Positions 13,661-51,051 of a stretch of 64,000 nucleotides of DNA are shown here, one piece after another. The notes beneath the pieces are model-generated. The model did not search any database and had not been told where the DNA came from. It worked only from the letters and a program-made list of their open reading frames with translations. The DNA comes from Felis catus (taxonomy: Eukaryota), in contig NC_058368.1 in assembly GCF_018350175.1 (NCBI RefSeq), positions 116,498,001 to 116,562,000 on the forward strand, given 5' to 3'. Position 1 is the first letter of the stretch. Each line of letters starts with the position of its first letter. The position numbers and the translations under genes are program-made.

Positions 13661-16045
<2,385 letters not shown>

Positions 16046-19000
16046 ATGCCAGAGCGAGACAGTAAGGCTCGGGTCATCTGTTCTTTATTACCTTCAGGAC
16101 TTGGGACACTTGGCGTGTTGTTTTCGCCTCAGTTCTTAAGCCCTGTGTGGAATCTGGGGGGTGGAGAGAGGGCGGGGTGTGACGCTGGAATCTGGCGAAG
16201 CCGTTGGGTCCCGAGTGAAACCGGGAATCTCCGGACTGTTGTCTCTAAGCCTTGTCCTTGCCCCAAGTGACAACGGATGGTTTATCTGTGAACTATCCCC
16301 TATCCCCAGCACTTAATCTTGAATTGCGCCAATTTATCTTTCACGCAGTATCTTAGATGTCATCTTCAGGAAGTCTTTGCTGATCCTCCAGCGCTGGTTT
16401 AGGGGCCCTCTCTGCACCAACAGCTCCTTGCATTTTCTCACTTCGGCACATAATTATGATCTATTGTCACTGTCTTTGTTCTTACCGTTCTTCCTCACTA
16501 TATTGTGAGCAGTTTGACGTGAAAACATCTGTATTGTTCGCTGATACATTCCAACTTTTGCACAGGGCCTGACACGAAAGAGATTTAAGTGCCTATTATT
16601 TTTCTTAGGTGAGCCTTTCTCCAACCCCTTGGCTCCAGATGGCCACGATGTGGACGATCCTCACTCCTTCCACCAGTGAGTGTTTCAGTATGGGACTATG
16701 GGAATGACCTAGGGGGCAAGTAGAGTGGTGTGGTGACAGTGAAAAGAATTCTAAGTTGCAGCAAGGATGGTCCAAAAAATTGTGCCACTTGCTTCTTTAT
16801 CTCTGTGAACTTTAGCTGGATCAGGTCAATTGCATCAAAGTATTAGAGAGGAAATTCTGGCCGGGAGGGTGCTAGTTTTTAAAGTTAATGTTTAATTGCA
16901 TATGATACAGAAGTTGATTCTTGTAGAAAACTAAAGTAGAAATAAGGGTAAATAACATCCCCAGTCCCTTTCTTAGAGGTAACCACTGTTCCTTTTTTAC
17001 TTGTCTTTTTTTTCCTTTTTTTTTTTTAACATTTATATACATACTTGCATGTCTGAGGAAAATATATTATTACTCTATAATTTGAAGTCTTAAAATTAAA
17101 TGGTACGGTGTTGTGTATATATATCATTTTGCCACTTGGTTTTCCCCACTCCATATCTTGGAGATTATTATATATTTTTTTAAGTTTATTCAGAGAGAGA
17201 CAGAGAGAGGAAGGGAGGGAGGGAGGGAGAGAGGGAGGGAGAGGGAGAGAGAACACCAGTAGGGGAGGGGCAGAGAGAGAGGGAGAGAATCCCAAGCAGT
17301 CTCTGCACTGTCAGCACAAAGCTGATGTGGGGCTTGAACTCACGAACCATAAGATCATGACCTGAGCCAAAGTCAGAAGCTTAACCAACTGAGCCACACA
17401 GGCACTGTTTGGAGATTATTTTCATGGCAGTAACAAGGACTCCCTTCTTGACCAGATTTTCATCAGGCTTCTCTAGGGTCTGTTTTTGACTAGGACTGTT
17501 GGGCTCCTGTTTATCAAAGAATGCTGTTAAGCCAGTTTATGGAGAATCCCCTTAAGTAATGAAGTAGGTCCAGTCAGGGTCCTTTTTCTACCCTTGATGC
17601 TTAAAAGTTCCTTTTAGTAATTTTTTTTTTTTATGTTTATTTATTTTTGAGACAGAGAGAGACAGAGCATGAACAGGGGAGGGGCAGAGAGAGAGGGAGA
17701 CACAGAATCTGAAACAGGCTCCGGGCTCCGAGCTGTCAGCACAGAGCCCGACGCGGGGCTTGAACTCACGGGCTGCGAGATCATGACCTGAGCCGAAGTC
17801 GGCCGCTTCACCAACTGAGCCACCCAGGCACCCCAGTAATTTTTTATAAGTTTCCAGTTGTCCCAGTGTATATTCAGAGTTGAGTGTCAGTTCCTCTCCC
17901 CTATTGCAGTAGTTTTTATTCCTATGACAGTAGTCTTTTTTTCTTTTTTTTTTTTTAAGTTTTTTAATTTATTTATCAGAGAGAGAGTGCATGCCTGAGA
18001 GCAGGCGTTGGGCAGAGAGAAGGGGAGAGAGAGGCAGGTTCCATGCTGTCAACACAGAGCCTGATGCAGGGTTCGAACCCATGAACTGCAAGATCATGAC
18101 CTGAGCTGAAGCTGGACACTTAACCAACTGAGCCACCCAACTGCCCTTACTATGACAATAGTCTTGAACAGTGTCTTCCTTGGGAACACTTAGCAGGATT
18201 CTTTGCTAAAACTGGGCACAGCAAGCCCAGAAAGAGCCCGACTGAAGTTTGGCCAAGGAGTAAGTCTTTATCATTGTACCAATTAAAATTATCTCTTATA
18301 CCATTGTTGCTATCTACCCCACATTTGAGAAACGTGATTTAATTAGTCTCTAGTTAATATACATTTAGGTTGTTTCCAAGTTTTTATTATCTTCATATCC
18401 GAAACTGAACCTTTTTTACAGGCCTTCTAATATACCTATGTCAGTAATTAGCAAAGCTAAATATAGGTGAATGGAGTTGCTAGGTCATAGGAGATACACA
18501 TGTAAATTTTGATACTGCCAACTTGTCCTCATATTGGCTGTACTGACTTATATATGTTCCCTTCAGCAGAATGTTTACTTCCCACATTCTCACTCATACT
18601 TGATTTATCAGACTTTTTAATTGTTAACACTGTGATGCATTAAAAGTGGCATGTTTTTGTCTTAGTTTGTATTTTCATGGTTTCCAGTAAAATTAATCTT
18701 TTTTTACATACTTCTTTTCCAGTTTTTACTAGGTACTCATTTTTAAAATCTTTGCCTTCTAGGTCAAAACTCACCAATGAAGACTTCAGGAAACTTCTCA
18801 TGACCCCGAGGGCTGCACCCACATCTGCACCACCCTCTAAATCACGTCACCATGAGTAAGTTCTGGGGTCTTCCAGCCTGTCTCTTATTTCCTTCCTATG
18901 GAAAATCTACCAAATTAGATGTCTTAGGAACTGGAAGTCTAGTTATTTTTGAAGACTGTGATTCTGATTGTCTCCTGCTGGAGATTGAAGCTCCAGTGGA

Positions 19001-22000: not shown

Positions 22001-25000
22001 TAAATGGCAGCTGTTAATTGTAGAAGGTTCTCAATGGCTATGCTTGCTGCTCGTCCTGTTTTTGTAGGGCGCAATGTTTACCGCACACTGTTTAGGAGCA
22101 AGGCATATGAACGCAATGAGCTGTTCCTGCCAGGCCGCATGGCCTATGTGGTAGACCTGGATGACGAGTATGCAGACACAGATATCCCCACCACGCTTAT
22201 CCGCAGCAAAGCAGATTGCCCCACTATGGAGGTAAGTGACTTGAGAGCCTCTTACGTGAGCCTTAAACCTGGGAACCAGCCTTGATTCTGCCCTGGGTCT
22301 CATCCACCACATTTAACCCATCACTGAGTCCTGTCCACTTTTCACTTTCCACAGAATCACTTGAATCTAAATTTCAATTTAGATTCACTGGAGTGATTTT
22401 TACAAATGGCTGGTGTGATCTTTTTCAACATGTACATTTTTGCCTCACCACTATTGAGAAGCTTTCAGTGATTTCTCATGGAGAAATTGCCCTTGCACCT
22501 TTTGGCCTTCTGAGCCACTTTTCACCATGATTCCCTGTTGTTGTTCTCCAGGGAATCCCAGCTCTCTTGAACATGCTAGATTCACTTTTGACACAGATCT
22601 CTTTGTATATGCTATTCTGTTTGCCTGGAATCTCCTGTAACACCTTTGTCTGTTTTCACCTAGTTGGTTATAATTTGTCCTTTAGTTTGTTAAGTGAATG
22701 AAGTGAAGAGATTCTTGCTCTGTGGGATAATATCCTTGCTACTTGGGGTTTTCAGGCCCAGACAACACTGACTACAAATGACATCGTAATCAGCAAGCTC
22801 ACCCAGATCCTTTCCTACCTGCGGCAGGGTACCCGCAATAAGAAGCTCAAGAAGAAGGATAAAGGTAACCTGGAGAGTTAGGGAGAGAAACCTTAACTCT
22901 GGAGGGGCATTTGAGGGTGGAACCATGGTCTGCTGGAGCCTTCTGTGTCTAGAACATTGGGGGGCTCCTGGAGAGCAGCAAAAAATGAGAGCAATAGAGC
23001 ATTAACTTGGCTCACCCAGAAAGCAGTGGTCAGCTTTGAGACTTGATGGGGGAGAGTATTGGGAGATTTTATTGTCCCACCTTCTAAACAGATGGGCATT
23101 CAGAGCTGTTTAGGCTAAGTGGGAATCAACTTAGGAATATTTTGTTCACTACTCTCTTTATATCTTAGGGAAGATGGAAGAGAAGAAGCCCCCTGAAGCT
23201 GACATGAAGTATGTATTGTAGCACCGTCACCTGATGTGAGGGAGGAAGGAGCTCTTTGTTTCTTGTTTTTGGCATTTTGGGGAGGCCTTGGTGTGAGAAT
23301 CTGGAGAAATGGCCAGGGAGAGTGGAAGTGGTGTGACTTTGGCAGCTAGGGATCTCTGTTTTTCTAGTATATTTGAAGACATTGGGGATTATGTGCCATC
23401 CACAACCAAGACTCCTCGGGACAAGGAGCGGGAGAGATACCGGGAACGAGAGCGTGATCGGGAGAGAGACAGAGACCGTGACAGAGAACGGGAGCGAGAA
23501 CGAGATCGGGAGCGGGAGCGGGACAGAGAGAGAGAGGAAGAGAAGAAGAGGCACAGCTACTTTGAGAAGCCGAAAGTGGATGATGAGGTGAGATAGGACC
23601 CTGGTACGGAGTGGTAGAACTGCCCATCTCTGTGCCTGCCCAGCCAGGTAGGGTAGGGAGTTGATTCAGGGATTAGTCAAGTGGGGAGGAATGAGTGTAA
23701 ATCCCTCACGGTGATACTCACTTCAGTTTCTCTTTTCTTTCCAGCCCATGGACGTTGACAAAGGTGGGTTGTATCTGAGACATCTTGAATTAGCTCTGGT
23801 GGTCTTGCTTTGCCCTGGGCTGAGAGTCTATCCTAGAGTTCAGAGCTGGCAACGGTTGGGATTGTGGGACTTCTGGTCTGGGTTCTCATTAAGATCCACA
23901 TCTTGCTTCATGGAATAGAAAGAAGAGGAGTCTGGAGTTGCCTCCCTCTTCCTGGGCAATGGCAGGCATATTTGCTCTGTTAGATACAATTCCTCCAGCT
24001 TTGCGGTTCTGAAAGACGTGAGGCAGGTCTCATCGGCCGTATTCTTTGTACACAACCCCATTTCACCCAGAGTAGCTCATTATTAGTTGAAATTTGATTA
24101 AAATTATGTTAACTAAAAGAGAGTTTTTTCTGTTACTTAAAAAATGGTTTTATGAAAACAGGTTAGAAGTGTGTGTGGAAAAGAGGTCGAAAGTTCCTTG
24201 TTTGACATTCTGAATAGAGTTCCCTTTCCCCCCCAGGACCTGGATCTGCTAAGGAGTTGATCAAATCGATCAATGAAAAGTTTGCTGGATCTGCTGGCTG
24301 GGAAGGCACTGAATCATATCCTTTATTTCACTATGTTGTTGGATTCTAGAAAACTGTTGTCCTGTTTCTTTCCAATTCCACCTACCTCCCTGTTTCCCCA
24401 CAACCCCTGGCTCCCATCCTGCCTCTTACCTCTTATGGTGAATTTTGATAGAATTTTGCAGTCATTGTGACTTCCCCTTTTTTCCCCACATTTGTTCTTT
24501 TTTTTTAAGGTATTATTATTTTTTTTAAGTTTATTTCAGTAATCTACACCCAGTGTGGGGCTTGAGCTTAACGACCCTGAGATTAAGAGTCACATTCTCT
24601 TCTGACTGAGCCAGCCAGGTGCCCCATGCCTTTCCCATTTCTCAGAGGATTCACACAAGCTCACAGCCTTCTCCTCACAAGTTTTCATGTTGGGGCTTCT
24701 AGGCCTTGGCCCTTCCTTCTTGAAGCTTTTCTGCTATAGGTAGAATTATTTTCTTTGACATAGCGTATGCTGAAGAAGCCAGAGGACAAGAAGCAGCTGG
24801 GAGACTTCTTTGGCATGTCCAACAGTTATGCTGAGTGTTATCCAGCCACGTATGTGAGACTGTTAAAGAAGGGAGGCTGGGATAATTGGACAATAAGTTG
24901 TGGGGAGGGGGATGAGGTGGAAATTTCATTAACTTGGACCCACGGGTACTTATTTGGATGAACTGTTCTTTGAGGCTCTGGGTGGGAGGTCTGGGGGTGG

Positions 25001-26592
25001 TGGTTGTCATTTCTAGGCTTATGGCATCTTAGTTGGGTGGGTTTCTGGATAAAGCATAGGAGTATGGGTCTGCACCATCTCTTTAACTGTTGCTTCTCTC
25101 CAGGATGGATGACATGGCTGTGGATAGTGATGAGGAGGTGGATTACAGCAAAATGGATCAGGTGTGGAGTTGGAAGGATGGGTGGGGATTTGGGGGTAGT
25201 TACTCTTCAGCAGTATCCGCCCCCCCCCCCCAAAAGATCTGTGTCTCGTTTTCTGGGCCTTAACTTTTCCTCCACTGCAGCACTAAGAACAGCAGCATTG
25301 TGAGGTCATGAGAAGCTTAACCTTTAACGTATCTGTCCAGAAGCAAATGAGATATGCCCAAAATAGATTTATTTCCTACAAAATGCCAGGCTTTGATTTC
25401 TGTACTAGGCAGTAAGCAAGCCTTTAGTGCATAAAGAGAAAGGGTAGGAAGGAACTTCAGTCTTGAGAAAAATAACTGAATTTTATTCTAGCAGGATTGA
25501 AATGTTCTTTTCTGTCTTAAAAACAAAAATACCTTAACAAATAATACCATTAATGGTGGCGAAATTTCAACTAGTTTTTCCTTGTTTTTACTGCAGTGGT
25601 TGAGCATGGTGTAATTCCATCTTGGAGAATTGCTGAACCCTGGCTCTGCCAAGTTTTGTGACCTTGACAACTTATTTTACTGCTTATGCTTCAGTTTCCT
25701 CATCGAGAGAATTCGGAGGAATATGGTTGTTTTTTAATAGAGTTTGAGGAAATTAAATAAGTGTTCAGTATAATGTCTGGTACATAGTAAGCATTTATTA
25801 GGGTGGGATTTATGAATGATGAAACAAGATTGTGGGAGAACCTGGCTTTATTAAGGGCTAAAATTCTGTTTCCACTGACATTTCTAACTTCCCTGTTCTC
25901 ACTGTGTCTCTAACAGGGTAATAAGAAAGGCCCCTTAGGCCGCTGGGACTTTGATACCCAGGAGGAATACAGCGAGTATATGAACAACAAGGAGGCTTTG
26001 CCCAAGTGAGTTGTACTAAATATGGCCAAAGATTGAGGAGAGGGATGATGATGGGCCAGCCTTCACCAGAACAGGTTCTCTGGTCACAGGGCCATCTGGG
26101 AACACCTTGCTACTGCTATGCAACCTCTGATGCCTTCTTTCTCCCAAATGTCCTTTATTGTTCTCAGAGCTGCATTCCAGTATGGTATCAAGATGTCTGA
26201 AGGGCGGAAGACCAGGCGCTTCAAGGAAACCAATGATAAAGCAGAACTAGATCGCCAGTGGAAGAAGATTAGTGCAGTAAGTGAGACTGCCTCTTAGGTG
26301 GACTTCATCTGAGGGAGACAATGGCCCACAGATGCAGGAACAGGCAGGGGGTTGGAGAGCAAAGGAGAGCGGTCAGACTTGTGTCTTAGGTGAGCTTAGG
26401 CTCACAGCCTAACTGTTGTGTGTTAACTGTTCTTTTTTGTAGATCATTGAGAAGAGGAAGAAGATGGAGGCCGATGGGTGAGCAGTAGCATTTTTCCTCT
26501 GGGGCACTGTAATAATTGGTTAGAGTACTGATCTTATGCCAACTCCTTTTTCCTTCCATTGCAGAGTTGAAGTGAAGAGACCAAAATACTAA
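16046..26592 (+). CDS. IK: Protein Red (IK), spliceosomal B-complex factor and SMU1 partner, 555 aa
   Basis: 20 exons: 16046-16061, 16609-16675, 18763-18855, 19204-19263, 20087-20254, 20425-20539, 20932-21002, 21201-21247, 22068-22231, 22756-22864, 23169-23208, 23368-23587, 23745-23763, 24237-24315, 24769-24849, 25104-25161, 25917-26005, 26168-26276, 26443-26477, 26565-26592; 1668 nt; MPERDSEPFSNPLAPDG...RE/RD repeat...VEVKRPKY. Confidence 0.96.
17170..18147 (-). mobile_element. Three antisense CAN-SINEs in IK intron 2 (about 17170-17405, 17620-17834, 17937-18147)
   Basis: SINE consensus; TSDs agtaattttt and ctatgaca(g/a)tagtctt. Confidence 0.85.
17430..18272. mobile_element. ERV1-type (MER31-like) LTR split by SINEs, plus an inverted fragment of the same family
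   Basis: Starts taacaaggactcccttcttgacc and ends ...ctctcccctattgca..atagtcttgaa; 18180-18272 is a reverse copy of the 5' end. Confidence 0.5.
21063..21150 (+). mobile_element. 5'-truncated CAN-SINE in IK intron 7
   Basis: CT tract plus A tail flanked by TSD aaagtaggaacac. Confidence 0.85.
23421..23550 (+). repeat. RE/RD dipeptide repeat (RED domain) coding tract
   Basis: Encodes RERERDRERDRDRDRERERERDRERERDRERE within IK exon 12. Confidence 0.9.
24316..24768 (+). other. U12-type (minor) intron 14 of IK with AT-AT termini
   Basis: 5' end ATATCCTTT; branch-like TTCTTTGAC at 24751-24759; the reading frame requires the 3' end at ...CGTAT|G. Confidence 0.85.
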
Positions 26593-28259: not shown

Positions 28260-28557
28260 TAGTTTCTGGCTCTTTCCATGGCAGCAGAGCTCTTGCAATG
28301 AGAGTCAATGTTCCTAAAACCTGCCAGACTTTCTGCAAGAAGTATGGCAAGCACCAACCCCACAGAGTATACACAGTACAAGAAAGGCAAAGATTCTCTG
28401 TTAAGCCCAGGGAAAGCAGCGTTATGACAGGAAGCAGAGTGGTTATGGTGGGCACACTAAACTGATTTTCTAGCAAAAGCATAAGATTACAAAGACGATT
28501 GTGCCGAGGGTTGAATGTATTGAGCCCAATAGCAGATCTAAGAAAATGCTGGCTATT

Positions 28558-28718
28558 GGGGCGCCTGGGTGGCTTGGTCAGTTGGGGTTCGACTTCGGCT
28601 CAGGTCATGATCTCATGGACCGTGAGTTCGAGCCCCGCGTCGGGCTCTGTGCTGACAGCTCGGAGCCTGGAGCCTGTTTCAGATTCTGTGTCTCCCTCTC
28701 TCTCTGCCCCTCCCCTGT
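28558..28718 (+). mobile_element. CAN-SINE inserted into the RPL36A pseudogene (3' end lies in the gap)
   Basis: ggggcgcctgggtggc head directly after the ..MLAI codons. Confidence 0.9.

Positions 28719-37759: not shown

Positions 37760-51051
<13,292 letters not shown>

Follow-up and report, generated by a model that had tools for sequence, protein, structure and literature searches.

The IK locus and its AT-AT intron

The window, by which we mean the whole 64,000-nt stretch of cat DNA that was analysed, carries the IK/RED gene on its forward strand. Membership of the IK/RED family was established by sequence match to Protein Red: with exon 14 alone as the query, residues 400-424 of that protein (PDB 5o9z_R, 6q8i) were identical at 24 of 25 positions (E 5.8e-10). 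Eighteen of the 19 IK introns have GT-AG ends, the sole exception being intron 14, which has AT-AT ends. The coordinates of this intron and of the features around it are collected in Table 1.

Table 1. Features of the IK gene and of its intron 14 in the window
Feature	Position	Strand	Basis or remark
IK/RED coding gene, 20 exons, 555 aa	16046..26592	+	exon-model translation without internal stop; Protein Red match
IK exon 14, ending in phase 2	24237..24315	+	gene model
IK intron 14, U12-type (A-type), AT-AT, 453 nt, phase 2	24316..24768	+	gene model; human orthologue AT_AT, 280 nt
U12 5' splice site ATATCCTTT, perfect RTATCCTTT match	24316..24324	+	abuts the end of exon 14
SINE-like insertion in IK intron 14, approximate limits	24497..24626	- (strand inferred from T-rich tail)	BLAST: 7 further hits in the window
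U12 branch-site-like TTCTTTGAC, predicted branch A at 24758	24751..24759	+	unique in the intron; human TTCTTTAAC at the same place
Terminal AT at the 3' end; next base G, the third of a Ser codon	24767..24768	+	human AT then G; fish AC then T
IK exon 15, 81 nt, symmetric (phase 2 to phase 2)	24769..24849	+	gene model

A sequence-only reading of this locus had placed a perfect U12-type donor directly after exon 14 and a U12-like branch site about 10 nt before the next exon, and both were borne out. The donor is an exact match to the RTATCCTTT consensus given for U12DB (PMC7367187). This 9-mer has a probability of ~6e-6 per site; two copies occur on the forward strand of the window against 0.38 expected, and one of the two lies exactly at the exon end demanded by the reading frame. 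Other sites with the shorter motif RTATCCTT were found at 1797, 22730, 33764 and 54545; those at 22730 and 54545 lie at intron 3' ends, and those at 1797 and 33764 were matched to no exon end. The predicted branch site is the only one within two mismatches of TTCCTTRAC in the 453-nt intron, has one mismatch to TTCCTTRAY and would place the branch A 10 nt from the intron end. Intron 14 thus displays the two sequence hallmarks of the U12 type, an RTATCCTTT donor and a branch site near the 3' end. The SINE-like insertion (~130 nt), presumably a CanSINE by name, accounts for most of the 173-nt excess of the cat intron over its human orthologue.

Several other features were recorded in the vicinity of IK. 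A gene on the reverse strand at 15390-16060, which we take to be NDUFA2-like, lies head to head with IK and starts ~300 nt from the IK start codon, a spacing that suggests a shared promoter. Just downstream of IK, at 28300-28560 (+), is a decayed, intronless ribosomal-protein-like retrocopy, which presumably resembles RPL36A. Elsewhere in the window, two paralogous genes at 43168 (-) and 53855 (+), assumed from their peptide to be HARS1 and HARS2, are each interrupted at the same codon position by a U12-like intron with GT-AG ends, whose donor is the variant GTATCTTTC and whose branch is CTCCTTAAC, near 42528 (-) and 54555 (+).

Orthologous introns in human, mouse and fish

The U12 intron of IK has been catalogued in two mammals. 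Table 3 of a survey published in 2006 (Sheth 2006; PMC1557818) gives its ends as AT-AT for human and AT-AA for mouse, and Table 2 of the same survey counts six AT-AT U12 introns in human and six in mouse. The tables of PMC8280824, in which AT-AN introns are handled as one class and eight rows among the U12 A-type introns are AT_AT, describe the human IK intron (NM_006083.3, chr5:140659835-140660114) as AT_AT, 280 nt long and covered by 588 spanning reads. The human and cat introns share AT-AT ends, a branch A 10 nt from the intron end and G as the first exon base. They differ in length (280 versus 453 nt), in the branch site (TTCTTTAAC versus TTCTTTGAC), at acceptor positions -5/-4 (CA in human, CG in cat) and in the distance from the upstream AG to the intron end, which is 9 nt shorter in cat. 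The U12-type AT-AT identity that had been proposed for this intron is therefore confirmed through its annotated human orthologue (PMC1557818, PMC8280824): the intron is real and was rightly described. As it has been in print since 2006, a claim of novelty is not supported, and the cat sequence adds a carnivore copy to the existing human/mouse entry.

A first scan of metagenomes with a longer exon-15 pattern gave no matches. A second scan returned five loci, three of which (L002, L003 and L006) are RED homologues; the remaining two (L004 and L005) have no RED-like flanks and were dropped. L003 (MDSQ01033740.1) contains the orthologues of IK exons 14 and 15, separated at the same phase-2 position by a 140-nt intron with AT-AC ends, the branch TTCCTTGAC, a branch A 12 nt from its end and T as the first exon base. 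Fifty-two proteins matched its exon 14; all those named are from teleost fish, and the best matches are to percomorphs (88-100%). The peptide formed across the AC junction of L003 occurs exactly in 2 of these 52 RED proteins, and 24 of the 52 have a QEPG-type peptide. Intron position and phase 2 are thus conserved between human and one percomorph fish, and so within the vertebrates. An ancestral AT-AC ending had been postulated from the cat sequence, and this single outgroup contig agrees with it, making AT-AC the likely ancestral end of the IK intron. L006 is a full-length but intronless RED homologue (49% identity), and in L002, a fragment of a RED-like gene, the upstream DNA examined contains no RTATCC donor; for these reasons, neither is informative on intron termini. 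The supplements of PMC9992838 and PMC2831892 yielded no outgroup termini.

Choice of the 3' junction

Joining 24315 to 24769 yields the 555-aa ORF. The nearby AC and AG had been predicted to lead to stops, as indeed they do: both rival ends are out of frame, with a stop after one codon for AC (24759) and after three for AG (24763). The accompanying assertion that the AT end is the sole junction to keep the frame has to be narrowed. This end (24768) is the only one that yields GTES-LKKPEDK and agrees with the annotated human junction, but AA ends at 24774 and 24777 (16 and 19 nt past the branch A) are also in frame, giving 553 and 552 aa, as is skipping of exon 15 by joining the U12 donor to the AG of exon 16 (528 aa). 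Frame alone therefore does not fix the junction. Reading frame and human orthology together suggest that the spliced cat product is joined at the AT end.

The frame-preserving routes, through an AA acceptor or an exon 15 skip, would offer other ways of making the protein, and the T at 24768 could in principle be an error of the assembly. We consider all of these very improbable, given that T is also the base in the human orthologue, whose annotated junction falls in the same register and has 588 spanning reads (PMC8280824); the shared register in itself makes an assembly error very unlikely. Sequencing runs agree with this indirectly: a fraction of 0.99 of 160 words sampled from 23745-25161 was present in 14 runs from five studies, although few of these words span 24768 and one run may be the source of the assembly. 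A search of G000 for an IK retrocopy with exons 15 and 17 found only the gene itself.

For splicing at the AT end we propose a mechanism in which the perfect donor would be bound by U11 and the branch site by U12, each through base pairing, and in which the acceptor would be chosen mainly by its distance from the branch A, such that an AN at 10 nt is used regardless of its last base. The AC and AG of the cat intron lie 1 and 5 nt from the predicted branch A and would be too close to it, so that the AN at 10 nt would be used. The fish intron of L003 agrees with this distance rule, in that an AG 6 nt from the branch A leads to a stop, the protein being recovered with the AC at 12 nt. The rule comes from the mutational literature (reportedly Dietrich 2005 and Levine & Durbin 2001).

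Dependence on the minor spliceosome

The human tables of PMC8280824 show that the orthologous intron depends on the minor spliceosome. Depletion of CENATAC raised the PSI of the IK intron from 0.024 to 0.099 at 24 h and 0.169 at 48 h (padj 6e-17 and 2e-28), with a log2FC of -0.41 for IK mRNA. Retention also went up in patient lymphoblasts (0.015 to 0.102) and in samples with mutant ZRSR2 (0.064 to 0.223). The other human AT-AT introns in these tables (UBR3, ERCC5, HNRNPLL, SMC3, KCMF1, TCTN1 and SRSF12) have the same termini and motifs and belong to the CENATAC-dependent class. Compared with them, IK has the lowest basal retention of the eight (0.024, HeLa) and the smallest rise among the seven that rise. 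Just 3 of 116 A-type rows (file 1, parts 2-6; median 0.108) fall below the basal retention of IK, and its CENATAC effect of 0.145 is less than half of the 0.36 averaged over A-type introns. The three human IK rows of these supplements carry no flag for alternative splicing. By analogy, the cat intron would depend on the minor spliceosome as the human one does. Retention of intron 14 in cat introduces a stop at codon 434, for a 433-aa product, and since this stop lies 791 nt upstream of the last junction the transcript is predicted to undergo decay.

These data bear on the earlier suggestion that a weak intron could make IK output hinge on minor-spliceosome activity. Taken further, a deliberately weak AT-AT end would tie RED/IK, which acts in the B complex of the major spliceosome, to minor-spliceosome activity as its rate-limited read-out. 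RED together with Smu1 promotes B complex activation on short introns (PMC6692369, in which neither 'U12' nor 'minor' occurs). Such a valve would fit with the 3.5- to 7-fold greater retention when CENATAC or ZRSR2 fails in human (PMC8280824), with the predicted decay and with the non-canonical ends kept in human, mouse and cat. It would also have a precedent in the SRSF10 circuit (PMC7244321, PMC8329584), where a minor intron likewise lies in the gene for a regulator of the major spliceosome. The SRSF10 circuit differs, however, in having a nested competing major intron, autoregulation and a basal PSI of 0.38 (PMC8280824), and for IK no competing intron of that kind is flagged; the published human tables give IK neither high basal retention (PSI 0.015-0.064) nor a competing major-spliceosome path, either of which would mark an SRSF10-like switch. 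Further evidence against a valve is that IK mRNA falls by just ~25% at 48 h of depletion and that the intron ends differently in human and in mouse, and canonically in fish. We therefore regard a valve as improbable. The dependence is real, but basal retention is low (1.5-6.4% in human, among the lowest of A-type introns), the CENATAC effect is small and alternative splicing is not flagged, and the claim of a weak, rate-limiting intron is thus not supported. Most likely, the odd AT end is a tolerated, near-neutral substitution and not a regulatory device.

Origin of the AT-AT termini

With high confidence, we view IK intron 14 as a U12-type AT-AT intron whose human orthologue depends on the minor spliceosome and whose last base, originally C, probably became T through CpG deamination. 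The ancestor would have been AT-AC, the change would either predate the human-carnivore split or have happened twice, and mouse would later have moved to AA. Taken by itself, a CpG origin of the terminal T at IK is moderately probable, and the evidence for it comes largely from AT-AT introns as a class. Among the human introns tabulated in PMC8280824, G is the first exon base behind 5 of 8 with AT-AT ends, compared with 18 of 101 with AT-AC ends (Fisher p 0.010; 0.031 when IK is removed), the latter being followed otherwise by A (43), T (21) or C (19). For this AT-AC baseline, parts 2-6 of file 1 (116 rows of a sheet ordered by response; PMC8280824 gives 179 A-type introns for HeLa) were gone through by eye, and three duplicate rows (the second rows of AP4E1, GATD3A and NR2C2AP) were left out; with the duplicates kept, the count is 20 of 104 and p is 0.013 (0.038 without IK). 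The observed/expected ratio of CpG in the IK gene body is 0.21.

Under CpG decay, an AC followed by an exonic G would become AT then G or, via the other strand, AC then A. HNRNPL has AC then A where HNRNPLL has AT then G, and their next five bases are identical (supplement of PMC8280824); these would be the two products expected from one ancestral CpG. SLC9A8 has AC then G in human (PMC8280824) and an AT-AT intron in mouse (PMC1557818), and KCMF1 has an AT-AC intron in fly (PMC1635337) and AT then G in human (PMC8280824).

Deamination of a CpG spanning the junction had been put forward for IK from the cat sequence. The idea is plausible and accords with the G excess at the level of the class, but at IK itself the fish has T after the acceptor and the mouse intron is AT-AA, which requires a transversion; with the fish T read from one contig, an ancestral CpG at IK is not demonstrated. 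The same two observations favour a possible, if somewhat doubtful, alternative in which CpG methylation plays no part and AT-AT ends come from ordinary substitution, as A-type introns drift among C, T and A at their last base. Also in keeping with drift are the three of eight human AT-AT introns that are followed by A (UBR3, ERCC5 and SRSF12) and the human-mouse comparison of U12 introns with a non-canonical end, where 14 of 24 pairs differ (PMC1557818). Drift sits poorly with the enrichment of G behind AT-AT and with the pairs that fit CpG decay (HNRNPL/HNRNPLL, human/mouse SLC9A8 and fly/human KCMF1). The numbers behind the G excess are small, and selection favouring a G next to a weak end could also have produced it. 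Since methylation occurs in plant gene bodies too, CpG decay alone leaves unexplained the near-absence of AT-AT introns from plants (PMC10639083).

Whether CpG decay extends to the whole vertebrate AT-AT subclass, IK included, is in our judgement evenly balanced; the subclass would then be mostly a by-product of germline CpG methylation, tolerated through the distance-based choice of the 3' end. If this is true, the first exon base would predict which introns have AT-AT ends, and such ends would be a sign of mutation pressure and not of regulation. A search of the open-access literature found no proposal of a CpG-decay origin of AT-AT, and the term 'CpG' gave no hits in the U12 surveys PMC1557818, PMC10639083, PMC1635337, PMC2831892 and PMC11347168. 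The modest new contribution here consists of the fish AT-AC orthologue and the G excess after AT-AT, which favour CpG decay as a source of AT-AT ends.

Annotation of RED genes in fish

The IK U12 junction misleads gene annotation: 13 of the 52 fish RED records (P0001-P0052) run into the U12 donor, so that exon 14 is followed by Tyr-Pro, and in several others the exon is cut short. These errors suggest that the same donor has been kept across teleosts.
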